64,000 nucleotides of DNA from Gekko japonicus (Eukaryota). Shown one piece after another: positions 1,419-50,500 of this stretch (positions are counted from its first letter, which is position 1; the number at the start of each line of letters is the position of its first letter). The stretch covers positions 110,178-174,177 of the forward strand of contig NW_015168732.1 in assembly GCF_001447785.1 (NCBI RefSeq), written 5' to 3'. The translations under genes were made by a program, and so were the position numbers. The notes below the pieces were generated by a model. That model worked only from the letters and a program-made list of their open reading frames with translations, was not told where the DNA came from and did no database searches.

Positions 1419-3509
1419 ATGGCCGCATCGGTGGAATTTGAGGAGCAACTGCCTATAACTCCCGAGGCTTCGGGGGTTGGGCAGCGGAGCGTTCAGCGGC
1501 TGGGGATCGCGCCGCTACAACAGGATGGCAGCTCCTCCAGTGCGGGAACCGGCCAGCCCCCACAAACCCCCCCACATGGTGGAAGATGGCGGTGTGGCAA
1601 GCAACCACAGCCCAAGGGATCCTGCCCACCGCGGGCCAAGAAGACGGCAGCACCGAAGTCAGCTGGCAGAGCGGCCAGCAGAAACAGCAAGAAGGGAAAA
1701 CGCCATGGGAAAGCCACGGGGCCGGCGAGCCCAGCGGGTGAGCTCATTCCATCGGGGGGGGGGCGGTGGGAGACGAGAGGGATGGGATCGTTTCAGCCCT
1801 GATTCCACCACAAGCGCCGGTACCAGGGCCGATCCCAGGCCAGCCTGGGGCCCCAAATGGAGCCGTTCTCGGCCAAATACCACCCCAGCCACCAGCAGAG
1901 GCCCCAGCACAGCACAGCGGCTCTGGGCCAGCGCAACACGCACAGCCCAGCAGCTCTGGACCAGGGCAGCCTGTACCCCTCAGCCCTTGGGAAAATTGGG
2001 GACCACCGGGACCATGGGCGATGGTGGGAAGTGCGTAGCCGGCCTCATTTCAACCCCCTCAGGCCCAACCTTTACTAACAGCCCTGACGTTGCTGCTGCC
2101 ACCACGAGGATTTGGCAGCACGGAACATGGCTGCCTCGTTCCCCCAGCCTTTCCATCCGGCCATCCAGCCTTTTCATCCGGACAACCTTGGACGTGGCCT
2201 TTTGTAGGGGGTCCCTGGCACAACACTCCATGGCCCCTTGGGGGATACCAAGGGGGGGATGGTTCAGACCTCCCAAACACTGGGATGCGAGGGAGTCCGG
2301 GGTAGAAGTCACTCCAGGGGCCCCAGGAGGAGATGGAGACACCATTCTTCGAGCTCCCAATCCTCTTCTGGCTCCAAGTCCTCATCTAAGAGACACAGGG
2401 ACCACAGGACCCCATCCCAAAATGAGGCATGAGGGGCCTCAGAGGCAGAAGGGGAACAGCAACAGGCCATTGCACCCAAGGGAATAGACCGGCCAGTAGC
2501 TAGCGAGGGTCTTGGGAGGCATCACCTGCACAGCATTAGCGCTGAACAAGTGGAGACAGCCTCCACTATTACGTCTACACTCCACACTGAAAAGGAGGAG
2601 GGAGAATGGTCAGGGGATGAGGTGGAAGTAAAACCCACATAGCTTCAAAAAATGCGTAAAGGTTTTTACCTTCTCACCCTTCCCTGGTTATTTTGAGGAT
2701 GTGATAAGGGAAGAGTGGGCCAACCTGGGGGGGGGGGAGGAGCATCTCTACTATCAATAGCAAGAAGTCTATATATGCTACCTGAGAGCACGATGGAAGA
2801 CCTGAAGGTACCTTTGGTGGACGCCCCTGTGGTGGCGATGCACTCGGGGGCCGTCCTTTTGAAGGACAGAGAAAACGTCCGGAGAGATGCTATGGACAAG
2901 AAGAACGAAACGGCCCTAAAGAAAGCGCATGAAGCCATCTCCCTAGCAATACGCTCAGCTGCGGCACTGTCCAACTTCACCAGGGCCATGGCCATTTGGG
3001 CCGACAACCTGCTACAAAACCCTGATGTAACCCCCCTGGAACTGCGGAGATCGCTCCTAAAAATGAAGCGCACAGCAGCGTTCGGAGCAGACGCGTCACA
3101 GGACAATATTCAGTTCTGTGCTAGAGCACAGGCAGCTAACATTATCATCTGCAGAAACATCTGGCTCAAGCACTGGAAGGTAGACACGTTATCAAAAAGT
3201 AACTTGGCTACGGAGAAGTTTTCTGGCAGGCTCCTTTTCGGAGAATCAAATCTGGACAAGGTCCTGGTGGAGACCAGGGAGAAGAAGAAGGCAATGCCCT
3301 CGTCCAGTTACCGGCGGGAAGGAGACCACAAGGGCAGACCGTCACATTCCTTTTGGGGCCACTTCAACTGGGGAAGGGTGCGGGACGGCCGGGACCACAG
3401 GCCATTCAAATCCTTCAAATACAGTGCTAGGTCAAACACTAGAAACACAGAAACCTACAGAACTGACAAGCCCCCCCAAAAAACAACAATCAGTGGGACT
3501 GCCAGATAG
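1419..3509 (+). pseudogene. DIRS ORF1/gag (frameshifted at G-runs); C-terminal part LAP2alpha-like
   Basis: Low-complexity Pro/Gly/Ser N-terminus, then LKVPLVDAPV...DAMDKKNE..LKKAHEA...RNIWLKHWKVD...LLFGESNLD typical of DIRS gag. Confidence 0.8.
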
Positions 3510-4999
3510 GGGGCTGGCTCCAGGCGTTTGCGCAGACCTGGAGCCAGACCACCACGGACCAGTGGGTGCAGAAGATCATATCTCAGGGCTACAGAATAGA
3601 ACTCACTGGCATTCCCCCCCCCAGTTTCAAACCATCGCCAGCCCTGAGGAACAAGGAACGCTTACGGCAACTACAGGAAGCGATCCAACACATCTGGAAC
3701 ATCGGTGCTGTAGAAAACGTTCCCGAAGCAGAACGCTTCAAAGGAATATACTCTGTACTATTTGTAGTACCAAAGAAGTCAGGAGACTGGAGGGCTGTCC
3801 TAAATCTACGCAGACTCAACAGATGGGTGGCAAGGAAAAAATTCCGGATGGAATCTTTGCATCACATCCTACAGATCCTACAGCAAGGGGATTTCATTAC
3901 TTCCATGGACCTGAAAGAGGCCTACCGGCATATACCAATGCATCCTTCTTCCAGACAGTTCCTGCGCTTCTGTTTTCGGGACCAGTATTTCCAGTACACA
4001 GCCCTGCCCTTTGGCCTTTCTTCGGCACCCAGAGTCTTCACCAAGGTCATGGTGGCTCTGGTGGTGGCCTTGCGCATGGAGGGAATACACATTCATCCTT
4101 ATCTGGACGATGCCTTTCTACATGCGGTAGACTATCAGACAGCGGTCTGTGACACTCAAAGGGCGAGGGAATTCCTGTGTGCGCACAGCTTCATCATCAA
4201 CGAGGAGAAGAGCCAATTGACACCCACACAAGATATCATACACCTAGGCGTGAGACTGAACACAAGACGGGCCACAGTGTCACTACCAGTGGAGAAGCAG
4301 ATCAAGATTCGGGCCTTAGTGACAAATGTCAGGGGCAAGAGGCATGTGGACCTCATGCAGCTGGCTACGCTGCAGGGCCTAATGATCTCCACGATCAACT
4401 TGATCCCGTGGGCACGATTCCACGCCAGACCTCTACAGTGGACTCTTCTACCATTCCAGCAGGACATCGCCAAGAAGAGACACATTCCGATAAGAATCTC
4501 AGATGACCTTCGGAGGGACCTGCACTGGTGGATGCAACAGTCAAACATGAGCAAGGCTATCACCTTCCTAAGGCCACAGCAACTCGTGATAATCACAGAT
4601 GCGAGCAAGAGGGGCTGGGGCGCACATTGCGGTCACCTGATCGCACAAGGAAGATGGTCCCCGAAACAAGCCTCTCACAGCATCAACTGGTTGGAACTCC
4701 AGGCTGTCACCCTGGCAATGAGGGCCTTTCACCAACACGTGCAAAACCAGCACATCTTAGTACGCACAGACAATATGTCCACAAAGGCACACATCAACCG
4801 ACAAGGGGGCACCAGGTCGAAGTCCCTATTCAAGGAGACGAGGATCCTGCTGCAATGGGCAGAACAATACACTTCAAGTCTCTGGGCAGAACACCTAAGG
4901 GGCCTGTCCAACCAACAGGTGGACTGGCTAAGCAGGGAGGACCTGAACCCAGGTGAATGGGCACTGAACAAGGAAGTCTTCATCCAGCTCACTCAATGA
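3503..4999 (+). pseudogene. DIRS reverse transcriptase + RNase H
   Basis: IGGWLQAFAQTW..DQWV start; FVVPKKSGDWR; DLKEAY.HIP; LPFGLSSAPRVFTK; YLDD; RNase H TDASKRGWG, INWLEL, RTDN. Confidence 0.95.
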
Positions 5000-5377
5000 T
5001 TTGGAATGCCCATGATGGATCTCCTCACGAACTCTCGGAACCACCAAGTTGAATGGTTCCTATCCCAATACCATGATTTGGAAGCAGAAGGGATCGACGC
5101 ACTATCCCACCCATGGCCACAGGGTCTCCTGTACGCTTTTCTGCCTACGGCCCTAATAGGGGCAATGATCAGCAGAATCAGAAGGGAGAGGGCCACAGTG
5201 GTATTTCTGGCACCCCACTGGCCGAGAAAACCGTGGTTCTCGGAGCTGGTGCAACTGGCAACGGGGAGACCGTGGACACTTCCCCAGAGACCGGACCTAT
5301 TACACCAAGGGCCCATTCTACATCCGGACCCGACATGGCTACAACTGACTGCATGGAAATTGAACGTACCCAACTAA
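5000..5377 (+). pseudogene. DIRS Dam-like (N6-adenine) DNA methyltransferase domain, in frame with RT/RH after a premature TGA at 4997
   Basis: DLL..RN..V..F.S...IDAL..PW...LYAFLP (normally YAFPP)...APHWPRKPWF; same frame as pol. Confidence 0.85.
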
Positions 5378-6406
5378 CCAGCATGGGGTTCCCTCGGGAG
5401 GTGATTGAAGTCATGCTACAGGCGAGACGGTCATCTACACTTCGAATATATAGCCATACATGGAGGACGTTCGTAAGATGGACCTCGACTACGGGCATCC
5501 AAACTATGCGGGCCACGGACAAGGAGATCATCCTATTTCTCTCCCGAGGGCTGGAAGCAGGGACTGCAACCAAACACCCTGAAGCGCCAAGTGGCAGCCA
5601 TACAAGCATGCTTGGGTAGCAAGACTCGGAGGAAGATATCATCCAGCAGTTATGTGAAAAAGTTCCTGAAGGGAGCAAGCCAGCTGGCTTCTCTGGTACG
5701 GCACAGATTCCCTACGTGGAGCCTACACAAGGTATTGAACGCTTTGACAAAAACTCCATTTGAGCCTATGAAATCAACTGAACTTCGGCTCTTATAATGG
5801 AAAGTCACCTTTCTCATTGCGGTGACTACAGCTAGGAGAATCTCTGAGCTGGCCGCTCTTTCAGCTAGGAAGGAGCTTTGCATCTTCCAGTGAGATTCCG
5901 TAACATTGAGGATGGATCCATCATTCATTCCAAAAGTAAATTCGGCCTTCCATCTCAACCAGCCAATTACATTACCTTCTTGATGTCTGAAGCCAACACA
6001 CCCCAAGGAAAAGATGTGGCACAAGCTGGACATCCGTCGGGCTCTACGTATATATCTTGACAGAATGGCCGGCTTCCATCGGTCCGACGCCCTGTTTGTA
6101 AGTTACGGGACCCCAAATCAGGGGGAAAAGGTATCAAAAATGACAGTGGCTTACTGGATCCAGCAATGCATTACCAAGGCCTATGAGGTACAAGGCCTCA
6201 CGCTGCCAGGCAAGTTAACAGCACATTCCACAAGAGCTGCTGCAACAACCGCGGCGTTTTCCACACGAGCCATGGTAGACGAGATATGCAGAGCAGCTAC
6301 CTAGGTGTCATTTTCCACGCTTGTGCGACACTACAGGATAGACCAAGCCACGTCAGTTGAGGCGGCATTTGGCAGAAGAGTTTTACAGCAAGTGGTAAAA
6401 GCATAA
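5353..6406 (+). pseudogene. DIRS tyrosine recombinase (one frameshift, several stops)
   Basis: ARRSSTLRIY..W..F SAM-like N-terminus; TTARRISEL (catalytic R); AHSTR (HxxR); ICRAAT[W->stop]; RHYRID (catalytic Y). Confidence 0.92.
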
Positions 6407-8780: not shown

Positions 8781-9060
8781 CAGTTTGGTGTAGTGGTTAG
8801 GAGTGTGAACTCTAATCTGGGAGAAACGGGTTTGATTCCCCACTCCTCCACATGCAGCTGCTGGTATAACCTTGGGTCAGTTACAAGTTCTTTCAGAGCT
8901 GTTCTCTCAAGAGCAGTTCTCAAAAGAGCTCTCTCAGTCCCACGTACCTCACAGGGTGTCTGTTGTGGGGAGGGGAAGGGAAAGGAGATTGTAAACCGCT
9001 CTGAGACTCCTTTGGGTAGTGAAGGGTGGGGTATAAATCCAATCTCCTCCTTCTCCTCCT
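8781..9060 (+). mobile_element. tRNA-derived SINE, Squam3-like
   Basis: A box tggtgtagtgg, B box ggtttgattcc; body cctcacagggtgtctgttgtggggag; gtaaaccgctctgagac tail ending in (ctc/ctt)n. Confidence 0.85.
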
Positions 9061-11396: not shown

Positions 11397-12881
11397 TTTT
11401 TTTTAAATATAGGACAAACACAAACAATCCAACAAACATTAAAAAACATACAGATTGGGGGTTACATATACCTTCTAATTATATCTGTTACAATACCTCC
11501 TACATTGTATAACTGTATATATACCGTATTTTTTGGACCATAAGACTCACTTTTTCTTCCAAAAAAAGTGGGAGGAAAAGTGAGTGCGTCTTATGAACCG
11601 AAGGTTTAGAATATTTTTTTCCCTGTTTTCCTCCTTTAAAAACTAGGTGCGTCTTAAGGTCAGGTGCGTCTTATGGTGCGAAAAATACGGTACTTATATC
11701 TAGATGTTCTGCATCATAATAAAAGCTGAATTCTAAAATATCTCCAAATGAGATTATAAGTCTATATTTTCATTTACTGTAATCTTCGAATCATTTATAA
11801 AATCTTGACCATGTACTCTGGAATCTCTCTTCTTTTTGTCCTCTCAAAAATAAAGTCAGCTTATCCATCTCAGCAGTTTCTAGAGTTTTGCTTACCATTT
11901 CTTCTTTTGAAGGCGCTTCATCTTTCCTCCAGTATTTAGCATACAATATTCTTGCAGTGGTCAATACATGTATAATGAGATAAAAGTCTTGTTTTTTTAC
12001 AATTTTCTGGTCTTATATTCAATAAAAGTAAATCGGGTGTAAAAGGTATGGTACATTCTAGCATTTTTTGTAACATTTCATGAATCCAAGACCAATGTTT
12101 TTAACTCTTATCCATCTGGAAATAGCCATTTATATCCAATTGAATTTGTTTGGTAATATTCGCCGTTACCACGGACATCTGCTCTTTCAAGGCATTTAGC
12201 TGTTCCAGTAGAGGGCGCATGACCTCAGCCATCGCCTTCGTCGTCTCACTGGTCGTTTCCAGCTTCAGGGACTCTAGTTTCGTTTTTAAAAGTTTCTCTT
12301 TGTCTCTGTCCCTCTTCCCCGCCATCTTTTTCCTGTTTGTTTACTTTTGCGAAAAAATTTTAAAGTCTCTGAATATGCGCTTGACTGTATAGCTCAATTC
12401 GGTGAGTACTTCTGGGCAATCGCATGTTTGTTCTTCCACTCCCCCCCTTTCGCTCAGCGATTTGTGCGCATGGGAGGCGTCCCTCCCCGCTCGCTTCTGC
12501 CGTTCCGCCACGTAGGGTAGGGAGCGTCTTTTCTTTTAAAAATCGTTACTCAGTTGACTCACGTTCATAATTAGTCTTCCGACCCCGCTTCCTTCATAAT
12601 TTCTCACGCCCGATCTCCTGCGCTTGACCCAGTTAGCTTCACTTGTACCATTCGGTCTCTCGGCTGGACGAACCACTGGAGCAAGGGGGAACCTCGATTC
12701 TCTGGCATTCAGCAATCGAAGAGGCTACCCCCTCAAAGCTCCTTGGCCAGGGTCCCTTCGCCGGGCCCCGGGGGGGGGTTACGAGCCTGCTCACCCCCTC
12801 CCTCCACCGGAGCACGGAGACACCCCTGGGAGGTCTGGGAGGTGAGTCCGTGAGCGTGCCGCCATCAAACGGAACCACCCT
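11397..12881 (-). mobile_element. Internally deleted L1: 5'UTR + ORF1 N-terminus + short ORF1 C-terminal piece + ORF2 C-terminus + 3'UTR
   Basis: 5' end gggtggttccgtttgatggcggc; ORF1 MAGKRDRDKEKL; IGYKWLFPDG at 12140-12111; ORF2 end HWSWIHEMLQK..LTTARILYAKYWRK..AEMDKLT; A-rich end near 11400. Confidence 0.8.
11524..11690. mobile_element. Tc1/mariner (Tc2/pogo-like) MITE nested in the L1 3'UTR
   Basis: TIRs ccgtattttttggaccataagactcac / gtgcgtcttatggtgcgaaaaatacgg with TA on both sides. Confidence 0.9.
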
Positions 12882-13240: not shown

Positions 13241-14890
13241 AACCCAGACAGCCCATCATGGGGGAGGACTGTTCCAGTTTTTCAAGCCTCTCGCCAGGAG
13301 GACCACCCGTTCCCTCCTGCCCCACTTCCTGACACCGCCTTTTAGCCCTCCTTAGGAGGCCACTCGGAGAGGGTCCCTCGTCACCTTTGTTCTCCCCCCC
13401 CCAAAAAAAATCCTCCAAGCGCTCCAGAGCGCACTAATTTCTGCAGCAGACAAATCGCTCACTCACAACTTTATTAAGGCCAGTAACTCGCACAGTAGAA
13501 ATTTTTGCTCACAGCCTCACAGGACTCTGCAGCTTAGAGGGACTTTCAAGTCTCCTGCCAGCAGGACCACCTGTTCCCTCCTGCCCCACTTCCTGACGCC
13601 GCCTTTTAGCCCTCCTTAGGAACCCAGACAGCCCATCATGGGGGAGGACTGTTCCAGTTTTTCAAGCCTCTCGCCAGGAGGACCACCCGTTCCCTCCTGC
13701 CCCACTTCCTGACACCGCCTTTTAGCCCTCCTTAGGAGGCCACTCGGAGAGGGTCCCTCGTCACCTTTGTTCTCCCCCCCCCAAAAAAAATCCTCCAAGC
13801 GCTCCAGAGCGCACTAATTTCTGCAGCAGACAAATCGCTCACTCACAACTTTATTAAGGCCAGTAACTCGCACAGTAGAAATTTTTTTCAAAAGCCTANN
13901 NNNNNNNNNNNNNNNNNNNNNNNNNNNNNNNNNNNNNNNNNNNNNNNNNNNNNNNNNNNNNNNNNNNNNNNNNNNNNNNNNNNNNNNNNNNNNNNNNNNN
14001 NNNNNNNNNNNNNNNNNNNNNNNNNNNNNNNNNNNNNNNNNNNNNNNNNNNNNNNNNNNNNNNNNNNNNNCGCCCCAGAGCACACTAATTTCTGCAGCAG
14101 CCAAATCAATCGCTCACAACTTTATTAAGGCCAGTACCTCGCAAAGTAGAATTTTTGCTCACAGGACTCAGCAGCTTAGAGGGACTTTCGAGCCTCCCAC
14201 CAGCGGGACCACTCATTCCCTCCTGCCCCACTTTCTGATGTCGCCTTTTAGCCCTCCTTAGGAGGCCACTCGGAGAGGGTCCCTCGTTGCTTCTGCTCTC
14301 CTCCCCCCCAAAAAAAAATCCTCCAAGCGCTCCAGAGGACACTAATTTCTGCAGCAGCCAAATTGCTCGCTCACAACTTTATTAAGGCCAGTAACTTGCA
14401 AAGTAGAAATTTTGTTCAAAGCCTCACAGAACTCTGCATCTTAGAGACAGTATAAGCAACCGGCTCCCCTGCTGCCCCCAGACTCTGTTTGTGATCCCAG
14501 GAGGGATCTGGCCCCTCCCTCCCTCATTTCCTCCTGCAGAGGAGCTGGCCTGATCTTGTTTCCCTGAGGTGAACAGGAGCAGCGCCCCAGCCCCCCACCC
14601 AAAAAAAAAAATCCTCCAAGCACTCCAGAGGACACTAATTTCTGCAGCAGCCAAATTGCTCGCTCACAACTTTATTAAGGCCAGTAACCTGCAAAGTAGA
14701 AATTTTGTTCAAAGCCTCACAGAACTCTGCATCTTAGAGACAGTATAAGCAACCGGCTCCCCTGCTGCCCCCAGACTCTGTTTGTGATCCCAGGAGGGAT
14801 CTGGCCCCTCCCTCCCTCATTTCCTCCTGCAGAGGAGCTGGCCTGATCTTGTTTCCCTGAGGTGAACAGGAGCAGCGCCCCAGCCCCCCA
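13241..14890. repeat. Tandem array of ~240-380 bp units spanning an assembly gap
   Basis: Core cactaatttctgcagcag..cacaactttattaaggccagta..gtagaa recurs at ~13432, 13812, 14083, 14340 and 14633. Confidence 0.9.
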
Positions 14891-17855: not shown

Positions 17856-18436
17856 CAGGCCCATAGCTAGAGTGGGGCATTTTGGGGCTCCCCCCCATTT
17901 AACTACTAAGGCCCCCCAACTTTCATCGAGCCCCCAGGCCCCCTGACTCTCTGGGCTGCTTGGAGGACTTCTGACTCTCTGGGGCACCCGGAGGACTTCC
18001 CACCACTGCCCCTTCCCCAAGCATGGCTTGCGCCGCCACTGCTGCATACTAGCCCCTTCCCTGTTTAAAGTATATATTAATGATATAGTAAGTTACTTGG
18101 ACTCCCCCAGTTTACATCCACCAAAACTTCAACAACAGCATGTGTCTATCTTACTGTATGCCGACAATGCTGTCGTCTTAGCTAGAACCAGTTGGCCTTA
18201 GAAGAGCTCTCAGTAAGTTTGCAGACTTTTGTAACAATAAGGAACTAACAATAAATTTTCAAAAAACCAAGGTTATGGCCTTCGGGGCCAGACAAAAGAA
18301 AAGAATCTGGTCTGTAAATGGGCACTCATTAGAGCAGGTTTCCTGCTTTAAATACTTAAGTATGGTCCAATAAAATGGGGCTAGGAAAGCCCATATACAG
18401 TATGTCGCCTCCCAAGGTGAAAGAACAGCCAATGCT

Positions 18437-20969
18437 TTTCTTTTCTTTCTTTTTTAGCCCCCCATAGGGGATTTTTTATTGCATTTTCTATAAACTACAA
18501 TGAAAAATAGGGAGGGAATCTACAATCTATGGGAGAAAGTAAAGAAAACCACTAAAAACCCAAGAGGTGGTGGTCATGCATAATGCTTATACAGTTAGCT
18601 TTTAACTTAAAATTCACTTTAAGTTCATTGAATGTGGTCAACCTACTTAATATCATGCTTAATAAGGAAAACACCAACACATCTGACTTCTTAAAAAGCA
18701 ATATAGGAAATGATTAACCAATATTATAACGGATTCCGAGAACTGTGATAGCTCATTTTTTAATCCTTCTACTTTCTCAAGTGATAATTTGTTTTTGGGG
18801 CTACCGCCCCAAGTTTAGAATCTGAGTCCTATCAGAAGATGCCACTCCTTCTTCTTCACTTCCCTTGGTGCTGTTGCCTTCATCCTCCTCTTCTTCTCCT
18901 GCTGGACGATTATGATGCTGTAGAAACTCACATGCCTTTTCAACAGAGTCAATTCTTTCTTTTTTGTCTTTAAATTTGAAGATTATACCGTCGGGCACGA
19001 TCCATCTGTAGGAGATGTTGTTTTTCTGTAGAAATAAAGTCAAGTCTCTAAATTTCTTTCTTTTCTTTCTTATTTCAAACAGGATGTCCTTCAAAATTTT
19101 TATTTCTTTATCCTTGATTTTCAAGTTCACTCCACTTCACCATCACTTCCCCGGGCAGATTATTCTTTCTTGTATATTCAGAATACGACCTAAAGATCAT
19201 ATCTACTTCACTTTGTAGAGTATCCACTTTGAGTATGACCTAAAGATCATATCTTCTTCACTTTGTAGAGTATCCACTTTGAGATCTGCCACAGGGCCTA
19301 AGAAGTCACACATAGTTTGTTTTAAATTCTCTCCCGTCTCTTCGGGGATCCCTTGAAATCTAAAGATATAGCTTCCCCTTTCCATTTGCAGTGGTAACAA
19401 ATGAGACTCATCCACTGATCTTTTCTTCTCCATCACCTGCATTTGTTTTTTAAGTTTCTTGGTGTTGGCATTCACCTCTTTAAGCTCTTTCTGCGTTTGC
19501 TCTGTTTTTTTAACCATCTCACTCAGCTGGACTTGTTGAGTGTCAAATTTTTGGTGTAATGACGTAACTTGTTCCAGCAGAGAGTGCGTCTCATTCAGCA
19601 TCTTTTGGAGATCTGTATCTGTGTCCTGTCTAGGGACAGAACTCACTGGGCTGGCATTTCCTGCAAGAGGCTTCAGCTTCGGTAGCTTATCTTTTTCCTC
19701 CCTCCTTGGAGGCACCATTTTAGAGAATGTTTACTTTTTGTAAAAGTTACCAAAGCCCTCAAAGTCCTTAAACAAGCTTGGTAAGTTCTTATAAGCTTTT
19801 TATTTTCGTCTCCTTTACTTAAAAAGGGAGCGGTGGTGCAGGCTGTAAATGTAAATGCAGCCTATTTAACATCTGGCCGAACATCTGTTCGAGCCCCACC
19901 GTGGCCGGAGTGAGCTCCCGGCCTACGTCCCAGCTCCCGCCCACCCAGCGGTTCAAAAGCCCGTTAAAGGGTGAGTAGATAAATGGGGACCTACCCTTAG
20001 TAGGGTAGGGGGCACCCCCTCGTCCTGAGGATTGTGGTGTGCGGCGGTGGCGAAGGAACAGTGATGATGGTGGCAACGATGACAGCGGAATCCTGGCAGC
20101 AGAGACGAGATGGCGTGGCGCAACGACGAAGCCAGTAGAGTGACCCCTGGTGGCCTGCAGAGATACAGCAGACAGTGGCCGTCACTAGCAGCAGAAGGCG
20201 TGGAAGACGTCATTTCCCGGCACGGCGGAGCCTACTGGACAGAGCCGAGGCCGGGAGAGACGAATCAACACGCCGAGAAAGCTGCCTCGCCGGAGAAGCG
20301 CCACGAGAGAGATGTCCTGCTGACCGAAGGAAGACAGCTGAGAGCCGAGGAAGCCGGAGGCCGGAGGCCAGAAGGGAGAGCCGCCACCACCGGGGTGCTA
20401 GGTAGGCTGACCCAACCCCTGAGAATATGCCCATAGTTAGGGAATTACAAAGTGACTAGCACTACAAACTGTAAACCGCCCAGAGACCCCCATGGGGGGT
20501 TAGGGCGGTATATAAATCGAATGATAAATAAAATAAAAATTAAATAGCCTGCTCCCCCCTTCTCTGCTACAAAAGTCCGCTTATTTTATTGTCGTGGGGG
20601 AGTTCCCCCCCGCTTCTGAAGGGGAGAGCTTTCGGCTAGTTTTCCAATGTTTTCACTTTAACTTGACTCACATTTCAGTGAATACATCGCTTTTATTCTT
20701 TCGCTCCTTGCTTGGCCACCAAACGTTTGCCCCGGTGTGCGTTCCTAGTTTCATTCGAGGAAGCTCTGCGATGGGACCTTCGGGGCTTGGAACGGGGCCC
20801 CCCTTTGCTGGCAGGGTTGCCGGAGAAAGGGTTCTCCTAGCACCCCATGGTTGGGAGCCCAATGCGAGGGCTTCCGGGGTGGTGAGGACAATCGCACCCC
20901 CTCCCAGCCGCAGGCTCAGGCACACATCTCCTGGAGTTTTGGGAGAATGCAGCTGCCAAAACCAAAACT
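18437..20969 (-). mobile_element. ORF1-only L1 derivative (HAL1-like) with polyA tail and TSD
   Basis: TSD cagccaatgct at 18426-18436 and 20970-20980; ORF1 19718->18801 (coiled coil, FRFQGIPEE, YRWIVPDG); ~360 bp 3'UTR with AATAAA and A-rich tail; no ORF2. Confidence 0.85.
19826..20545 (+). mobile_element. Chimeric SINE-like element: Sauria-like tRNA head, GC-rich body, L2-type tail
   Basis: B box gttcgagcc; gagtgagctcccg..gtcccagctcc..gtgagtagataaat resembles the Sauria SINE 5' half; tail tgtaaaccgccc..gggcggtatataaat..(taaa)n. Confidence 0.7.
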
Positions 20970-22770
20970 CAGCCAATGCTATTCTTAAGTTCTATTGCAC
21001 CAAAGGGGCTTAATATGTGCCAGCTGCCCAAAAACTCTTTCAAGCAAAGGCAGTTGGACAGATGCTCTATGGCACTTTTATTGAACCTCTAGTTTCTCAG
21101 AGCAGTTCTTCAGATCCCAAGGTGTGTATCGAATACACTGATCCGTCTAGAGACAGGTGCGATATCAGTGGAAGCCAAAATTACTTTAGCTTCACTCCAG
21201 TATTGGCTTAAACTAAATTTTCATCCTCAGGGACTAACCCACTTGTTCCTCTCAGACAACTTTCAATCCAAATGGCTGAGAGCAGTTCATAATAAATTAT
21301 ATGAGCTTGGTTTNNNNNNNNNNNNNNNNNNNNNNNNNNNNNNNNNNNNNNNNNNNNNNNNNNNNNNNNNNNNNNNNNNNNNNNNNNNNNNNNNNNNNNN
21401 NNNNNNNNNNNNNNNNNNNNNNNNNNNNNNNNNNNNNNNNNNNNNNNNNNNNNNNNNNNNNNNNNNNNNNNNNNNNNNNNNNNNNNNNNNNNNNNNNNNN
21501 NNNNNNNNNNNNNNNNNNNNNNNNNNNNNNNNNNNNNNNNNNNNNNNNNNNNNNNNNNNNNNNNNNNNNNNNNNNNNNNNNNNNNNNNNNNNNNNNNNNN
21601 NNNNNNNNNNNNNNNNNNNNNNNNNNNNNNNNNNNNNNNNNNNNNNNNNNNNNNNNNNNNNNNNNNNNNNNNNNNNNNNNNNNNNNNNNNNNNNNNNNNN
21701 NNNNNNNNNNNNNNNNNNNNNNNNNNNNATAGTCGCCTAATAGTCTCTGTTTTATGTTCTTCTTTTACTTTATTACGCTCAACTGTATTTTTATAGAGTC
21801 TTATTTTACTGTCCTAAATTCAATTATATGAATGTTATATTTAAGCATGTGTGTTCTATGGCTTGTTGCTGTAATAAATGCCTGACTGACTTCTGACTTT
21901 CTGGGCCACCCGGAGGACTTCCCACCACTACCCCTTCCCCAAGCATGGCTTGTTTCCCCACTGTCGCCACTGCTGCCCCTTCCCCAAGTGTAGCAGCAGC
22001 CTCGCCAGCTCCGTCCCGAAATGGTGGCAGCATAGCATGAGGTAGCTGGGCTGGCCAGCAGGCAAGGTGGAGCCAGTGGGTCTCAACCGGTGCCTCCCTG
22101 CCATACCCAGTGCAGCGCAGGAACTTTCGGTGGCACACAGAGGTCAGCGGGACTGGAGCAGGTTTGCAGCATGATCTGGGCTGGGGCACCTCCGTGGAGC
22201 ATCAAGCGCTACCTGAGGAGGATGTGTGCGCCATGGGGAATTGATAAAGCCATGTAGTTGGGTTTCGGGTTGTAAGCGGGTGGCTTGGGCTGACTTGGTA
22301 TGCAGGCAGAGTGCGAACACCGCAAAAAGGAGGTGTTTAAAAAAAAATTTTATTATTATTTTGTGATGTCAGTGCCCCCCAACTTATTTAAAGGCCCCCC
22401 AAATTACAAAATCCTGGCTATGGGCCTGCTGCCAGTACTAAACAATAAAGCTTTGAGACCATATCCAAAGGTCTTGTACTTCAGTTTCATAAAATCATAA
22501 CTTACTTTTTCTTGTTTGCATGTTAAAAGTTTGTTGAATACTTCTGGCATAATTTATGGTAGCTTCCTTAAGCCTTGAATAATCTAACATAGTAATAAAT
22601 ATTAGCTTCTATAGATTGGTACTATTGAACGTACTCAGTAGAATGTAGTATGGGCACCTGTAGAAAGAAGGGGGGAGGTAGTTTCTCACCTGTAACAAAT
22701 ACTTCCCATAGGAAGTCTACCTTGGCTATGATTACGATGAAGTCAGTGGACATCAAGAATTCATGAAACA

Positions 22771-25807: not shown

Positions 25808-26590
25808 GAAATTAAAAGACGCCTGCTCCTTGGGAGGAAAGCGATGACAAACCTTGACAGCATAATAAAAAGTAGAGACATCACCCTGCCAACAAAAGTC
25901 CATATGGTCAAAGCAATGATATTCCCAGTAGTACTGTATGGCTGCCAGAGTTGGACTATAAGGAAGGCCGAACGCCGAAGAATAGATTATATTGAATTAT
26001 GGTGCTGGAGAAGACTCTTGAGCACAGGCGTGGCGGAGCCGGATGTGGACATAGCCGGGCCGGGGCTGCTACGGGCTGCGCGCCAGAAGATCGCGGAGCT
26101 GAGAAGACTGGCCTTAGACAGCACAAAGAATGGGACGCCGACCCCAGTGGACCGCCGGAGGAAGAGAGCCATGGAACAGCTAACCCACCACTTGGGTGCC
26201 AGTAGGTAGCCCCACCCCCTGTAACATATGTGGCCATAGTCTAGGGAATTAACTTGCACTTGCAACGTATCTGTAAACCGCTCTGAGACCTTCGGGTCTG
26301 AGCAGTATAGAAACCGAATGTTGTAGTTGTAGTAGTAGTAGTAGTAGTAGTAATAATAAGAATAATAATACTTTGCCCACCAAATGAGAAGGGAGCACTC
26401 ACTGGAGAAGACCCTGATGCTGGGAAAGATTGAAGATCAAAGAAGAAGGGGATGGCAAAGGATGAAATGGTTATTGAGGCAACTAACATAAAATTAAGCA
26501 AACTCCAGAGCACGACGGAAGACAGGAGGGCCTGGCGTGATGTGGTCCATGGGGTCATGAAGAGTCAGATTCGACTGTGCGACTGAACAA
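25808..26590 (+). mobile_element. Bov-B (RTE) 3' fragment with TSD
   Basis: MTNLDSIIKSRDITLPTKV..LYGCQSWTIRKAE..ELWCWRRLL; gactgaacaa tail; TSD cagtatctctttat (25794-25807) / cagcatctctttat (26591-26604). Confidence 0.92.
26023..26370 (+). mobile_element. Second, 5'-truncated copy of the chimeric L2-tailed element, inserted in Bov-B
   Basis: ccaccac..gggtgc.agtaggt..acccctg..atatg..ccatagt.tagggaatta..tgtaaaccgc shared with 20383-20480; (gta)n/(ata)n tail. Confidence 0.75.
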
Positions 26591-30506: not shown

Positions 30507-31624
30507 CCCCCCCATGTTTATTTATAATTTTTTGACAAAATATACATCTTATCTTCGTTTTACATTTGATATCTATGCGAGTCATATTTATGCTTTAACC
30601 AAAATACAACTTATCTTATTTTACGTTCCATAGTTGTGCTCTGTTTTTTGTTATATTGTCTAGCCATATATAGAACATTTTCCATCTTTTTTCAAAAAAT
30701 TCTTTACTCTTCCCTTGTAATATTATGCTTAATCTATCCATTTCAGCTAATTAATACTGTCTCTATTACTTCTTGTTTTGAGGGTATTTTTTCTTCTTTC
30801 CAACATTTGGCTAATAATATTCTTGCTGCTGTAAAAATATAAGTTATTACATATTTATTTGCCTTGCTATAGATTTCTGGAAGAATATTTAATAAAACTC
30901 TGGAGTAAATGTTACATTAAGTCCCATAATTTCATTTACCATCTTATGAATTTTTTGCCAGTATCTTTATATTCTTTCGCATCTCCACCACATGTGAAAG
31001 AATGTACCAACATTTTTTTACATTTCCAACAGTTCTTTTTAACATTTGTATAACATTTTGCTATTTTCTCAGGTGTCCAGTGCCACCTATAAAACGTCTT
31101 ATATATGTTTTCTTTATAAGGAATTGCTCTCATTAATTTTATTGAATTCCAAATTTTAGCCCATTGCTCTGATTCTAAAGTACGTTGTAAGTCTTTCGTC
31201 CATGCTACCATAGTTCCTTTGACAGTTTCATCTAACAAATAATCTGCGATTAGATATTTATATAATTTCTGTATCTGTTTGTCGCTGGAGGAAAGCCATA
31301 TCTTATCCAATTTGTTATTATTGTTATAGAATCCTGTTTTTTTTGTCTACATTAAATCTTGAAGTTAGCTGCATACTGTCCCACCACGTAAGCCTCACAT
31401 TCTGTGTTACCAATTGTTCTTCCTTTTTTAATCTATTATTTTTATCTAAAAGTTCTTCATAGGTCACTTTTTTACTTTTCTCAATGTTGGTATTGTGAGT
31501 GCTTCTATTGGTGCCACCCATTTAGGAATTTTTAAATAATATCGCTTTTTTATGTCCTTCCATTTTCATTAAGGCACCTCTTATCGTATGTTGTGTGAAG
31601 CTCTTTGGAGATTTATCCTCTTCG
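30507..31624 (-). mobile_element. 5'-truncated L1 (ORF2 C-terminus)
   Basis: KENIYKTFYRWHWTP..CWKCK zinc-knuckle region; 19-bp TSD agtgtagtactgtgaattt (30488-30506, 31625-31643). Confidence 0.92.
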
Positions 31625-37540: not shown

Positions 37541-37642
37541 GACAAAGTTTGTGTCCAGTGGCCCCTTTAAGACCAACAAAGTTTAATTCTGGTATAAGCT
37601 TTTGTGTGCATGCACACTTCTTCAAATACATGAAAGCTTATA
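37541..37642 (-). mobile_element. Penelope/Neptune-like terminal repeat fragment with a degenerate hammerhead; inverted partner at 39112-39205
   Basis: Minus strand reads tTGAAGA-a-gtgtgc-at-gcacac-aAAA-gctta (two core mutations). Confidence 0.55.
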
Positions 37643-39100
37643 TTTATTTTTATTTGTTTATTTATTTATTTGACTTATATCCCGCCCTTCCTCATGGGCT
37701 CAGGGTGGCTGACAGGAGGCAATTGCCATACATAACAATAAAAACCAGATAAAACAATCAATTACATTTACACTTAAAATTGGTGCTCGCAAAACAACAT
37801 CCAAGCTGGGGTCTCCAATACAATGGTTCAAAATTCTACTAGCTCTACTTGATCAGTCTGCGCTATGTCCGTTCTTCAGTTCCAGGGCCAGCTCGCATTG
37901 CCAAAATTGGCAGCGCGGTGATGGTACAGTGATGGTGGCGGCTCCTACTCAAAAGCCTGGCAGAAGAGCTCTGCCTTGCAGGCCCTGCGGAACTGCATAA
38001 GGTCCCGCAGGGCCCTGATCTCCTCTGGGAGCTCGTTCCACCAGATAGGAGCCGCCACTGAAAAAGCCCTGGCCCTAGTCACAACATATTTGACATCTCT
38101 AGGGGCTGGAATAACCAGAAGATGTTTCGCCCTCGACCGTAGTGCCCTTGGGGGAACATATGGGGAAAGGTGGTCCCTTAAGTAAGCTGGACCATGGCCA
38201 TATAGGGCTTTATAGGTAAGAACCAGCACTTTGAAGCGGACCCGGTACGGTATTGGCAGCCAGTGCAGCGCCTTCAGCGCAGGCTGGACGTGGTCTCGCC
38301 TAGAGAGGCCCATCAACAGCCAGGCTGCTGCATTCTGCACCAGCTGCAGCTTCCGGATCTGCGACAAAGGCAGCCCCATGTAGAAAGTGTTACAGTAGTC
38401 TAACCTCGAGGTGATCATCACGTGGATCACTGTGGCCAAGTCATCGCGGTCAAGGTAGGGAGCCAACTGCCGTGCCAGCTGCAGTTGATAAAAGGCTGAC
38501 TTGACAGTGGCTGCAACCTGGGCCTCCATTGTTAAGGCAGAGTCCAGGAGCACTCCCAAACTCCTAACCCTCAGCTCCGGCACCAAAGGCACCCCGTCGA
38601 AGGCCAGGAGAGGGAGCCCCAACCCTGAACCGACCCGACTTAAGCCCAGGACCTCTGTCTTCGCCAGGCTTAGCTTCAGCCGACTCAGCCTGAGCCAACC
38701 AGCCACAGCCTGAAGTGCCCGATGAAGGTCATCCGGGTCGGAATCCGACCGGCCGCCCAACATTAGATAGAGCTGGGTGTCATCCACATATTGATGGCAC
38801 CCTAGCCCATAACTCCGAGCAATCTGGGCGAGGGGGCGCATATAGATGTTGAATAATATTGGGGACAGCACTGCCCCCTAAGGCAGCCCACACTCAAGAG
38901 GATACCTCCGGGAGCGCTGATCCCCAATTGCCACCCTCTGTCCCCGACCTTGGAGAAAAGAGGCAAACCATTGAAGGGCAAGACCCTGAATCCCCACGTC
39001 GGCAAGGTGGTGGGTCAGCAGCTGATGGTCGACCGTAACGAATGCGGCCGACAGATCTAACAACAGCAATGCTGCCACACCACCTTGATCCAGATGCCTT
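37643..39100 (-). mobile_element. L2 LINE, 5'-truncated (RT domain to 3' end)
   Basis: LLLLDLSAAF.TVDH; LSPILFNIYM; YVDDTQLY; SRLDYCN; LHWLP; WNELP; (taaa)n tail. Confidence 0.95.
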
Positions 39101-41674: not shown

Positions 41675-43268
41675 CAGGGGTCTTTTCGTAGAAAAAGAGC
41701 TGCAGGAGCTCATTAGGTTATGGTATGCTAATGAGCTACTAGGCTATTAGCATACTAGCTCATTAGCATATGCAACCCCCCCTGACATAACCAGAAGTGA
41801 TGTCAGAAGGGGAAGCAAAGGGGGGGAGGCATCTTCAAAAGCCTCCCCTTGGGGGGGGGAGCGAAGAGAGAAGGGGTTTAAACTTTAAACCCCTTCTCAC
41901 TAGAGTTGGGCAGCAGAAGGAGGAAAGAAGGAAGGAAAGAGAGAGAAAATAGAGAGAAGGAATGAAGGAAGGAAAGATTGAAAGCGAAGGAAAGAAGGAA
42001 GGAATAAGAAGGAAAGAAGGAGGGAAAGAAATAAAGAGGGCAAACAGATGGGGGGAGGGGGGAGGCTCTCCCACCATCCACTCTCACAATCAAGCCTCCG
42101 CCACCCCCGCAGATCCCTCACTTACCCTGGGAGGTGGCGGTAAGCCTCTTCTGGCCTCCTCCGAACCTCAGCGCTCTGGCACTGGCCAGAGGAGGCGGAG
42201 GGGGGCTCTTCTTGCCTCCTCCGCGCCTCAGCACTCCGGCGCCGGCCGGAAGAGGAGGAGGCGGGGGCTCTTCTGGTCTCCTCCATTCCTCAGCGCTTCG
42301 GCACCGGCCGGAGGCGGTGGTGGGGGACCTCCTTGACTCCTCCAGTCCTCAGTGCTCCGGCGCTGGCTGGAGGCGGCAGCAGGGGGGCTCTTATTGCCTC
42401 CTCCATGCCTTAGCGTTGCGCGCCGGCCGGAGGCGGCGGCGGGGGGCCTCTTCTTGCCTCCTCCGCACCTCAGTGCTTCGGCACCGGCCGGAGGCGGTGG
42501 CGGGGGACCTCCTTGACTCCTCCAGTCCTCAGTGCTCCGACGCTGGCTGGAGGAAGCGGCGGGGGGCCTCTTCTGGCCTCCTCCGGGCTGCAGCGCTCTG
42601 GCGCTGGCTGGAGACAGCGGCGGGGGGCTCTTCTGGCCTCCTCCGGGCCTCAGCACTCCGGCGCCGGCCGGAGGTGGCAGTGGAGGGGCTCTGCTGGCCT
42701 CCTCCGTCCCACAGTGCTCTGGTGCTGGCAGGAGGAGGCGGTGGGAGGCTTGTCTGGCCTCCTCCATCCCGCAGCACTCTGGCGCTGGCTGGTGGACGCA
42801 GCGGGGGGGCTCATCTGGCCTCCTCCGGGCGGCAGCGCTCTGGCGCTGGCCGGAGGCGGCGGCGGGGGCTCTGCTGGCCTCCTCCGTCCTTCAGTGCTCA
42901 GGTGCTGGCCAGAGGAGGCAGCCAGGGGCTCTGCTGGCCTCCTCCGTCCCGCAGTGCTCTGGTGCTGGCTGGAGGATGCGGTGAGGGGGGCTCGTCTGGC
43001 CTCCTCTGGGCCACGGCGCTGTGGCGCTGGCTGGAGGACGCAGCGGGGGGGCTTGTCTGGCCTCCTCCGGGCTGCAGCACTCCCGCGCTGGCCCGGGGAG
43101 GCAGCAACGGGCCTCCCTGGGGCCACAGCACTCCAGCCTGGGCCCCAGTAGGCCGGTGACAGGCCGTAGTGGGAAAGCTTGGGGCGGGGCTTGCTGCCGC
43201 CATCATTTTGCAAGCTCCTGGGCTCCCGGAGCAGTGCTCCGGCATGCTCCCGCCCCAAAAGACCCCTG
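41675..43268. mobile_element. Non-autonomous hAT element carrying a GC-rich ~59-bp minisatellite (42130-43110)
   Basis: Perfect TIR caggggtctttt / aaaagacccctg; perfect TSD cttagaac (41667-41674, 43269-43276). Confidence 0.93.
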
Positions 43269-44850: not shown

Positions 44851-45224
44851 CTCCATTCTCAGAACCAGTGTGCTACTGAACACCAACTGCTGGAGGTAAG
44901 CAGTGGAAATAGATTATTGCCATATTGCGTTAATTGTGGGTATCTCCATGGCAACTGGTTGGCAACTGTGGGTAACAGGATACTGGACTAGATAGATCTT
45001 TGTTCCAGTCCAGCAGTGTTTTCCTCACATTTTGATAAACACTTTTGGGCAGTCTAGAATACATAGAACATGTTGACCCGGAATAAGTTTATTTCTTTTA
45101 TTAAAATGAGATTTAACCATCCCTCCTCCATCTCATTTACATGCCAGAGTTTCATTAGGTCAGGGTTTTTTAAATCTTCTTGTATTAGCATCAATGTTAG
45201 GACTTTGAACAGTTGACTGTAAAA

Positions 45225-45512
45225 TTTATTTTATTTTATTTTATTAGGTTTATATCCCACCCCGTCCCCACATTGTAGGCTCAGGGCGGGTTCCAACATA
45301 CAGGTCTGCAATTTATGCAGATTTACATTTAAAATATGTAAAATCAAAATCATCACATACTAAAGCAACAATGCCTCAAGAGAAAGCATTGTGGTCCCAA
45401 TCCGTCTTCATGGATCTGTGGTCACTGGAGGGGAGGCCAATCAAGTGGACGCCCGCTGCCTCAACTAAAGGCCCGGCAGAAGAGCTTCATCTTGCAGGCC
45501 CTGCGGAACTGT
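45225..45512 (-). mobile_element. L2 3' fragment
   Basis: cagaagagct..ttgcaggccctgcggaactg matches 37960-37995; (taaaa)n tail. Confidence 0.8.
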
Positions 45513-47579: not shown

Positions 47580-50500
47580 ATCTTTGGAGGATTTTAGACA
47601 CCGGTTAATACTACAAGAATACAATTTCCACACTGGGCATGCTGTTTGCTTGTTACAAAAAATACAGAAAGAGAGAATACATTCAGCTAAATTAGGATAA
47701 AATTATACAACTACATCATAATATTTGATCAGCTGAGGGTAAAAGTTTAAAATGGCATCAGGTACAATAAAGAAAACATCTACAGCCTCACCAAGTCAAA
47801 TTGAGGGTTTAACTCAACAAAAGGCAAACCTTCCACAACTGACAATGGCAGATTTGCAAACAATGATGCAAAACTGTCTATCCCAAGCATCACAACACAC
47901 GGCTGAGCTAATTAAAAAAGAACTGGAGCCAATGCAAAATAAAATCAATGAGATTTCAATACAATTAAAATCAGACACAGAAGAAATTAAAGCAGAAATA
48001 GCAAAAATAGCAAGAACTACCAATAATTTTTGATTTAGATCAAGAAATACAGGATGTAAAATTAAAAACAGATAAAATGGAAGAATCAATAATTATGCTG
48101 GAAATGGAGAAAGCAGGAACCATTCTTAGATTTCAAAATATAACAGAGCAGTTAGACAAAAACTTGAAAGAAGAGCTGGTACAGAATATTGTAAAGCAAT
48201 TTAATATGGGAAGTGAAAAAGAATTGTCAGAGGATATAGAAACTATCTATAGAAGAAACTCGGCTTATGCCAAAAAACACAAAACGCCAAGAGAAGTTCA
48301 TATAAAATTCTATAAGTAGACAACAAGAGATCAAATATTACATGCAGCAAACACAAATAAATTAAAAATAGCAGGAGCAGAAATTAAAATATTAAAAGAA
48401 GTACCTTGGCGCGTTAGAGAAAAATGACATAACTATGATATATTGGCCAATCTATTGAGGAAAAACATGATACAATATAGATGGTTACTCCCTTAATGAA
48501 TGCTGTTTACCTATAAGTCTAGAAGATATCAGATAGACTCTATCTTTAAATTGGAAAAATTTTTAGATAAGGAGGGCAAAGAATTAGAGTGGCAAAAAGG
48601 TACTGGAGAAGACCAAGGAGGAGAAGAAGAGGAAGGTGAAGAAGAAGATGATGAATCCCAAAAAGGTACACTACTACAAACAGATGCCAAAAGTTTATAT
48701 AAAAATGATAAAAAGGGGGGGGGGAAGCAACAATTAAGATTCAGAACTGAATCGCAAATTCAAACTAGACTACAGCTTAAAAACATAGTAACCTTAAAGA
48801 AAAACAAAAACATGACAACTAAAAAATTTAATGTACTATCAGTTAACGTCAACAGATTAAATAGCCCACAAAAAAAGAATTTTCCATCAAGCTTTAAAAA
48901 TGCACGTCAACATTACTTGTTTACAAGAAACGCATATAAAGGAGGGACATGTAAAACACTTAGAGTATAAAAAATTAGGTATTCCATTTATCTCATCGAA
49001 CACTGTAAAAAAAAGAGGGGTGGTGTAAACGAGAAACTTCACCCGGTGCTTAATTATAAATCAGCGGATGGAAGAATTGTAGCAGTGAAAATCAGAAGAA
49101 ATGGAAAAGTGACTTTGATTGTAAATCTTTATGCTCCAATCTAGAATCAAGAAAATTTCTTTAAAGAACTAAAGAGTATGTTAACTAAAGAAAATCCCAA
49201 GGAAGATAGGAAAAAAACGGAAAAAAACTTTAAAAGCAGGTACTATTTTACCTAAAAGTTTCCTAAATTTATCTGAAGAACTTAATATGATCTAGAAAAC
49301 AAGGAACCCACAAAAGAGAGACTACACATACTTCTCCCCTAGACATAAATCGTGGTCAAGGATAGACATGGCCTGGATAAACTTGGGAATGGCGAAAGAT
49401 TTATTAGAAGTAGAAATATTACCAAACACCTTTGCTGACCATAATTCTATTTGGATATCTTTACAAGAAATACATAAAAATACTAGATGGAGACTAAACA
49501 CTGGACTATTAAGAGATAGCAAATTTCTTAAAAAACTTAAATCAGAAGTGAAGGACTTTTTAAAAATAAATAGAACGGAGGACATGACATTAAATAATAT
49601 TTGGGATACACTAAAAGCATATATGAGAGGTCTATTCATCAGTCAAGATATATGAAGAAGAAAACAAAAAAGGGAGAAATTCAAAAAACTGACAGAACAA
49701 CTAAAAAAATAAGAAGCGAGCTTGAAAAATAAAGGAGATATAGAGGAGACAAGAATTAAGATAAAATTGATTCAGCATCAAGTAAATGTTACTAACACAA
49801 GAAATAGCAAACAAAATAGAATACACAAAAGCATACTATTTTGAAAATGTGAATAAACCCTCTCATTGGCTAGCCTATAAGCTTAAAAAAGAGAAAGAAA
49901 AAAGGAGGATTTCAGCACTAAAAAATGAAAACCAAGAGATAAAACATATAAACCAAGATTTAAAAGAGATTGTAGAAAACTTTTATAGACTACTTTATAA
50001 ACAAAGCCTGCAAAACCAGCAAGAACTTAAAGACTTTTTCTTGAGACAGAAATAAATTTACGGAAGATCAGAAGAGAATTTTGAATGAAACCATTACAAC
50101 TTCTGAGATTGTGGAAGCATTTAAAAAACAAAAGAAAAAGAGGTCACCAGGTCCAGATGGCATTCCAGCTGAAGTTTATCAAAAACTGGAAGACGAATTA
50201 ATACCTTTATTTAAAGACTTGACTCATAACTCTATGGCTACAGGAAAAACACCGAACTCATGGAATGAAGCATTAATAACATTAATACATAAACCTAATA
50301 CAGAAGATAATGATATCAAAAATTATAGACCTATTTCACTTCTAAACGTAGACTATAAGATATTTGCGAAAATTATATCTACTAGATTTAAGAAGGTAAT
50401 GTCTCAAGTTATACATCAAGATCAACCAGGCTTTCTCCCAAAAAGACAAATAAAGAAGAACTTAAGAACCATCGTAAATATTATAGAATATTATGAGCAG

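Follow-up and report, generated by a model that had tools for sequence, protein, structure and literature searches.

A decayed L1 derivative with ORF1 and without ORF2 in the gecko Gekko japonicus

HAL1 elements are non-autonomous derivatives of the long interspersed element (LINE) L1 that encode only the protein of open reading frame 1 (ORF1p), and they have several independent origins in mammals (PMC5753468, PMC13756887). Rat HAL1 (RNHAL1) arose by deletion of ORF2 and has ~7500 copies (PMC2241872). Guinea-pig HAL1 kept the coding capacity of its ORF1 for 29-44 Myr (PMC3627910). A 64-kb stretch of the Gekko japonicus genome (contig NW_015168732.1; hereafter the window, with positions counted from its first nucleotide) contains on its minus strand an L1 derivative, hereafter the unit. 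Like human HAL1, RNHAL1 and guinea-pig HAL1, it has an L1 5' untranslated region (UTR) and ORF1, no ORF2, a poly(A) end and a target-site duplication (TSD) (Table 1). It differs from the mammalian elements in that its ORF1 is broken and of squamate type, so any family to which it belongs would have an independent origin.

The ORF1-only architecture is already known, and HAL1 is described in mammals only in the literature searched. No report of a squamate or other reptile HAL1 was found in that literature, with Repbase, Dfam, subscription papers and supplements outside the search, and the available part of PMC5203782 makes no mention of HAL1. HeT-A (from Jockey) and Ag-Sponge (from CR1) also keep ORF1p and borrow reverse transcriptase (RT) (PMC5786205), but they belong to other LINE clades and hosts, and the likeness drawn here is one of logic. 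The ORF1mneoI reporter, an engineered HAL1 proxy, shares with the unit an L1 5'UTR-ORF1 RNA. ORF2p mobilises such ORF1-only RNA in trans if functional ORF1p is encoded in cis, a protein the unit cannot make, and the reporter was assayed with human proteins only (PMC11260458).

Lizard L1 clade 1 resembles the unit in having a CpG-rich 5'UTR, an AT-rich 3' segment within 194-570 nt, AATAAA, and an ORF1 with coiled coil (CC), RRM and C-terminal domain (CTD) that lacks a basic docking motif where the RRM begins (PMC5381506). The docking motif was compared by eye, from an alignment, with the published clade descriptions rather than with clade ORF1 sequences. Clade 1 differs in having ORF2 within ~110 nt of ORF1. 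The lengths differ as well, with a 5'UTR of ~570 nt in the unit (nested insert removed) against 792-1465 nt in Anolis clade 1, and an ORF1 of ~910-945 nt against 1026-1101 nt (PMC5381506). At the 5' terminus, 7 of the first 10 bases match the clade-1 GACTTCCGGT consensus (GACTTCCGGTGN8ATGGCG) and the rest diverges; the comparison made here with the published Anolis consensus sequences covered approximately the first 400 nt of each (PMC5381506). Clade 2 does not match the unit: its 5'UTR measures 216-238 nt (~570 nt in the unit), and its G-rich spacer has 40-50% GC (32% in the 3' segment of the unit).

We give about an even chance to the reading in which the unit, now decayed, comes from a squamate L1 family that is HAL1-like, encodes ORF1 only, and is non-autonomous and mobilised by ORF2p in trans. 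It has the architecture of a HAL1 and probably arose or moved like one. It is not classed here as a HAL1 member, because this copy has no intact ORF1 and a multi-copy family is putative.

Table 1. Features of the unit, its target and related L1 elements in the window.
Feature	Position	Strand	Basis or remarks
5' TSD copy	20970..20986	-	exact core 20970-20980; 17 bp with 1 mismatch; TT before
L1 5'UTR, first part, with element 5' terminus	20546..20969	-	CpG-rich, 55% GC
Unrelated retroposon, antisense insert in 5'UTR	19864..20545	+	matches to other window repeats
L1 5'UTR, second part, up to ORF1 start	19719..19863	-	colinear in global alignment after insert removal
L1 ORF1 of squamate type, broken (coiled coil, RRM, CTD, acidic tail)	18801..19718	-	homology and profile searches
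50-nt tandem duplication, frameshift	19187..19283	-	TRF period 50, 1.9 copies, 97%; 94% over 50 nt
44-nt deletion site in RRM	19133..19140 (~19137)	-	anchor spacing; profile gap 187-202
Possible true ORF1 tail, other frame (third lesion near 18830)	18769..18830	-	stop 18771-18769; weak
Non-coding AT-rich 3'UTR-like segment	18481..18800	-	32% GC; 4 pyrimidine tracts of at least 8 nt near end; no ORF2 similarity
AATAAA polyadenylation signal	18475..18480	-	sequence
19-nt spacer with G-run (18474-18456), then A-rich tail (18455-18437)	18437..18474	-	sequence
3' TSD copy	18426..18442	-	exact 11-mer core; 17-bp repeat with 1 mismatch
Host: decayed RT-encoding LINE fragment split by the unit	17947..18425; probable resumption at 20987-21313	+	weak RVT_1 matches
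Second short L1 derivative, internally deleted	~11400-12880	-	557-nt 5'UTR (12324-12880), ~70 ORF1 codons, last ~115 ORF2 codons, 3'UTR
Decayed long L1 with ORF1 and ORF2	47752-52597	+	internal control; 3' end cut by N gap

Insertion hallmarks and the absence of ORF2

A preliminary description of this locus had reported an 11-bp TSD around the unit, an L1-type ORF1 with a coiled coil and the motifs FRFQGIPEE and YRWIVPDG, a non-coding 3' stretch of ~360 bp with AATAAA and an A-rich tail, and no endonuclease or RT sequence. The present analysis bears out all four. The 11-mer CAGCCAATGCT is present at 18426-18436 and 20970-20980 with 11/11 identity, and these are its only two occurrences in the window on both strands. 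Among random window pairs of similar size and spacing, ~12 of 20,000 shared an exact 11-mer. The direct repeat grows to 17 bp with one mismatch (16/17). TT stands before the upstream copy, read on the element strand, and gives TT/AAGA, a usual L1 endonuclease-type site. The evidence supports an L1 derivative with ORF1 and without ORF2 that was inserted by target-primed reverse transcription. The target was a decayed LINE, with two RVT_1 matches in the left flank (E 0.007 and 0.07, both under the Pfam cut-off) and no Pfam match in the ORF of the right flank, where the host LINE probably resumes. Two of three frames are open across the reconstructed empty site, so a frame test does not discriminate.

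The 364 nt at the 3' end of the unit scored -3.9 bits against an ORF2 profile, with 127 of 200 shuffles scoring as high, and contain no endonuclease or RT detectable by that profile. The profile was built from 22 squamate proteins of 1150-1300 aa out of 105 retained (120 listed ORF2 proteins less 15 that were rodent, primate, unnamed or, in one case, misannotated). As a positive control, equal-sized tiles of the decayed ORF2 in the window were all detected (37/37, at least 37.7 bits). With tiles of 90 nt, 61 of 80 beat the best shuffle, and remnants below ~90 nt could be missed. A tblastn search of the unit with the 105 ORF2 proteins placed none of its best 15 of 78 matches in the 3' region, and the two strongest of these were ORF1 halves of ORF1-ORF2 fusion gene models. 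Polyadenylation inside ORF2, which the preliminary description had named as a case that would overturn its reading, is excluded by the profile search down to remnants of ~90 nt. A 'GVFLIK' endonuclease-like stretch and an ATG after ORF1 were also considered as ORF2 remnants and rejected.

The stretch after ORF1 measures 330-364 nt, has 32% GC, and ends in AATAAA (18480-18475), a spacer and an A-rich tail of 19 nt (18455-18437), the last 6 nt of which are possibly part of the TSD. The clade-1 L1s of Anolis have ORF1-ORF2 spacers 0-110 nt long and 3'UTRs that measure 194-570 nt with 22.5-40.2% GC and pyrimidine tracts, and its clade-2 L1s have G-rich spacers of 270-384 nt with 39.6-50% GC (PMC5381506). 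Because its length, GC content and pyrimidine tracts fit a clade-1 3'UTR, and because it far exceeds a clade-1 spacer, we infer that the segment is more likely a 3'UTR than a spacer. The motif AATAAA N0-12 ATGGGGG occurs three times in the window against 0.13 expected, namely at the end of the unit, at the end of an ORF2-bearing L1 (30509) and at 42030, an excess that is partly circular in that the motif was picked after the first two sites had been seen. Folding of the segment was no better than that of shuffles (z -1.33; 12/100). The ORF2-bearing element at ~30510-31500 on the minus strand is a 5'-truncated L1 (ORF2 C-terminus and a short 3'UTR) that ends, like the unit, in AATAAA and a G-run.

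Identity and decay of ORF1 and the 5'UTR

ORF1 starts with an ATG at 19718, and the coiled coil and both motifs are present. A HMMER search with ORF1 returned 187 homologous proteins at E<=1e-3. Among 30 relatives looked up, all 12 that were named are squamate (lizards, snakes and an amphisbaenian), including three from geckos. A profile of 14 sequences, the candidate among them, matched the human ORF1p structures 2YKP and 2YKO (E 3e-14) over the end of the coiled coil, the RRM and the CTD. A search of PDB with the single ORF1 sequence gave four matches (E>=0.1) and no ORF1p, which was found with the profile only. Pfam searches of the candidate ORF1 pieces gave coiled-coil noise under the cut-off and no Transposase_22, a domain found at E<=1e-3 in 6 of the 34 ORF1 homologues scanned. 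Identity with the ORF1 of the decayed long L1 in the window is 29% (E 9e-18), and that element was rejected as a parent of the unit. Judged from its sequence, ORF1 is an L1 ORF1p of squamate type with CC-RRM-CTD architecture. Several of the squamate homologues (P0007, P0035, P0018, P0025) carry apolipoprotein A-IV-like, myosin-6-like or ubiquitin-conjugating enzyme isoform labels, which points to L1 sequence inside public gene models.

Translation from the ATG meets stops at codons 172, 174, 192 and 194, the first at 19205-19203. The frame is broken because the 50-nt tandem duplication shifts it; the 44-nt deletion then shifts it back. The deletion was located by the spacing of two conserved anchors, which are 37 aa apart in 30 of 31 homologues (31 of 150 matched both anchors) against 67 nt in the unit. 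A profile from 87 homologues likewise matched ORF1 in three pieces and two frames with a gap of 16 positions. In the profile alignment the deletion takes out ~15 residues, corresponding to chain positions 118-132 of 2YKP. It ends at the first residue of the REKG motif, which is essential for human L1 retrotransposition. When read in the correct frames, the N- and C-terminal parts contain no stops in 156 and 111 codons, respectively; the ORF1 of the long L1 in the window has 4 stops in 258 codons. A third frameshift near 18830 is possible, as GAV and Y.LR motifs in the other frame resemble the tail of the closest homologue, but GA[VTIA][GA] is present in only 5 of 87 homologue tails, and the support for this lesion is weak.

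The ORF1 of the unit yields at most a coiled-coil fragment of 171 residues and is inert as a source of chaperone. The element had been suggested to supply its own RNA chaperone. For this copy the suggestion is wrong, because translation stops at codon 172 and part of the RRM is missing; only in a progenitor could it be true. On the minus strand, the ORF1 stop is enclosed by a perfect 7-bp hairpin (18781-18810), where Rfam returned a frameshift-element match under its gathering score (22 of 40 bits, E 0.034) that is probably due to chance. Rfam returned two matches in all, both below the gathering score, and they were taken as chance.

The 1251 nt upstream of the ORF1 ATG had been assigned to a minus-strand 5'UTR. 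An L1 5'UTR is indeed present and 5'-complete, but ~680 of these nucleotides (~19864-20545) belong to an unrelated retroposon on the opposite strand. The first part of the 5'UTR (20546-20969) aligns locally with the 5'UTR of a second L1 derivative at 12324-12880 (score 56; maximum of 200 shuffles 39). The shorter part (19719-19863) alone is not significant (25; shuffle maximum 37), and the insert has no similarity to the second 5'UTR (32; shuffle maximum 38). With the insert removed, the remaining 566 nt could be aligned over the full length of the second 5'UTR of 557 nt (329/629 columns). The global score of 32 compares with -95 +/- 14 for 200 shuffles (maximum -53), and the 5' ends are aligned. 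This end-to-end colinearity shows that the 5' end is complete and that the true 5'UTR measures ~570 nt.

A separate copy, at 26154-26320, matches the 3' 170 nt of the insert (69%, E 5e-14). The tail of the insert also matches 45224-45295, 37641-37715 and 8990-9043, and the window repeats that share it include one located 3' of an RT ORF (37945-38877). The insert is firmly bounded on its 3' side, and its 5' boundary lies anywhere between ~19800 and 19865. A 5-nt direct repeat, AGCCT, occurs at the insert; a colinearity scan peaks instead at 19804-19812, partly driven by length, and a hairpin test of the 5' boundary gave a weak result (rank 21 of 600). The two plus-strand copies, 19864-20545 and ~26024-26360, are diverged, GC-rich and CpG-rich, and have in common the 170-nt 3' end, which we take to carry an L2-type tail. 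The copy at ~26024-26360 is inserted in a further LINE fragment and has a (GTA)n repeat at its end. The ends of the 19864-20545 insert form a 13-nt near-inverted repeat. The spacer of the unit (18456-18473) resembles the loop region of a hairpin in the insert tail (20484-20501) at 15 of 18 bases; both are near-palindromes, and the resemblance is possibly due to chance.

Other L1 derivatives and repeats in the window

The second short L1 derivative lies ~6 kb from the unit. Its ORF1 codons are joined directly to C-terminal codons of ORF2, with the junction near 12120-12160, and its complete-looking 5'UTR is homologous to that of the unit. No TSD was found around it (longest repeats 8 nt). It is a candidate for a bipartite, non-autonomous L1 without a full ORF1. 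Its 3'UTR contains an insert at ~11525-11695 that, read by eye, resembles a miniature inverted-repeat transposable element, with inverted ends and TA-rich flanks.

In the decayed long L1, the end of ORF1 runs in frame and without a stop into the start of ORF2 (ORF 48500-48970). Its nearest row in a quick tree is a Gekko japonicus protein with 40% identity. The tree was made from 60 of the 87 homologues (250-420 aa) and four other rows, had 26 of 61 inner branches unresolved, and was used for branch length and nearest neighbour only.

The window is rich in repeats and also contains CR1/L2-type RT ORFs. On the plus strand, the first ORF at ~2700-5600 is LAP2alpha-like and is overlapped by a 510-codon RT/RNase H ORF; we take this element to be a DIRS-like retrotransposon. 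A GC-rich tandem array at 42130-43115 has ~16 copies of a 60-bp unit and is open in several frames. Near-identical duplications at 13241-14890 (266 bp at 100% and 293 bp at 98-99%) lie by an N gap and are possibly scaffolding artefacts.

Origin of the unit and its bearing on squamate L1 evolution

If the unit belongs to an ORF1-only family, its history may be reconstructed as follows. An L1 would have lost the whole of ORF2, which is absent here, with the end of ORF1 becoming joined to the 3'UTR. The short element would have been transcribed from its own 5'UTR and polyadenylated ~19 nt past AATAAA. As in mammalian HAL1 and the ORF1mneoI assay, ORF1p made in cis would have packaged the RNA and aided the capture of ORF2p from an autonomous L1. 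That ORF2p would have nicked TT/AAGA in an older LINE, copied the RNA at full length and left the 17-bp duplication seen today. The antisense retroposon, the 50-nt duplication and the 44-nt deletion, all present in the unit, may have been gained afterwards or in its immediate progenitor. In a toy model, in which lengths were assumed and breakpoints spread uniformly, random deletions that leave ORF1 whole, remove ORF2 and keep the 3'UTR make up 0.3% of all deletions and 0.9% of those >2.5 kb, values that make the shape of the unit easier to explain by amplification than by chance. The presence of two short, 5'-complete L1 derivatives in 64 kb would likewise be easier to explain if such forms amplify.

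The preliminary description held that the unit retrotransposed in its present form. Its L1-type insertion hallmarks stand, but a TSD and tail also survive a later genomic deletion of ORF2. Under this alternative, a full-length L1 of ~5.5-6 kb was inserted and lost ORF2 afterwards in one DNA deletion, and the ORF1-only form never moved. The TSD, the 5' end and the tail would all be expected to persist, the unit already carries indels of 44-50 nt, and the neighbour at 11400-12880 is also internally deleted. We nevertheless consider such a deletion unlikely. Both breakpoints would have to fall in narrow zones, as in the above 0.9% of large random deletions, and no ORF2 remnant was found on either side.

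No more probable is a single event at the level of RNA or cDNA, in which ORF2 of an autonomous L1 was skipped by splicing or template jump and one insertion resulted, without a family. Splicing of L1 RNA is documented (PMC4859970), and an event of this kind accounts for an insertion that is flanked by TSDs, complete at the 5' end and normal at the 3' end. Unless ORF2 happens to be flanked by splice sites, it requires breakpoints in the same narrow zones, and the long L1 in the window, with its 29% ORF1 identity, was not the parent.

Premature polyadenylation in a long ORF1-ORF2 spacer is less probable still. The apparent 3'UTR would then be intergenic sequence, cleaved ~19 nt past an internal AATAAA, which is the usual cleavage distance. 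Lizard L1s are described as ending in AATAAA followed by poly(A), in contrast to the 19-nt gap between signal and tail in the unit, and clade-2 spacers have a suitable length (PMC5381506). It has also been noted that 3'-truncated ORF1 RNAs might retrotranspose (PMC4859970). However, the ORF1 of the unit groups with homologues among which are ORF1-ORF2 fusion gene models and the spacer-less L1 in the window, and it does not have the basic docking motif that clade 2 retains where the RRM begins. The G-rich clade-2 spacers also have a higher GC content, and the same AATAAA...ATGGGGG end is found on an ORF2-bearing fragment. A domesticated ORF1 gene similar to L1TD1 (ORF1-only host genes exist in mammals; PMC4161310) or an assembly chimaera (the window has seven N runs, one ~330 nt from the unit) has a negligible probability, since the reading frame of ORF1 is broken, no N lies within the unit, and matching TSDs would not arise by joining two different copies.

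Several results weigh against an ORF1-only family. No close relative of ORF1 was found: its closest homologue is a 305-aa protein with 36% identity, a word-index protein search gave 0 of 1121 candidates at E<=1e-5, and the same search with a three-sequence alignment gave 1 of 7999, which was that relative. Its branch in the quick tree is not unusually long (1.01 against a median of 0.93), and its frame carries the four stops described above. Neither the junction between ORF1 and the 3' segment nor the segment itself has a second copy in the 64-kb window. The length of the segment is also within the range of clade-2 spacers. None of the three further L1 3'UTRs of the window aligned with it (181, 18 and 159 of 300 shuffles scored as high), so that length, composition and one motif are the grounds for calling it an L1 3'UTR. 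The breakpoints of the second derivative lie inside ORF1 and ORF2, showing that this genome has undergone deletions reaching into ORF1, and large deletions are reported to fragment lizard LINEs (PMC3787681), which also counts in favour of a loss of ORF2 after insertion. One-off deletion and premature polyadenylation jointly weigh about the same as a HAL1-like family.

A broader reading can be offered tentatively, in which squamates independently evolved HAL1-like L1 parasites, with short, 5'-complete non-autonomous families, one with ORF1 (the unit) and one without (11400-12880). Within this tentative reading, short forms may have been favoured as selection in lizards removes full-length L1s.

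The gain from this locus is moderate, as the architecture was known before, the copy at hand is dead and a family is conjectural. ORF1-only L1 derivatives are a natural experiment that bears on why an element needs ORF1p in cis when it can borrow ORF2p. If a squamate family exists, it would represent a further independent origin and place ORF1-only L1 families beyond mammals. The advantage of ORF1p in cis would then extend to a divergent lizard ORF1p whose oligomeric state is uncertain, and the evolution of ORF1 in ORF1-only elements could be set against that in autonomous ones within a lineage where many L1 families coexist.

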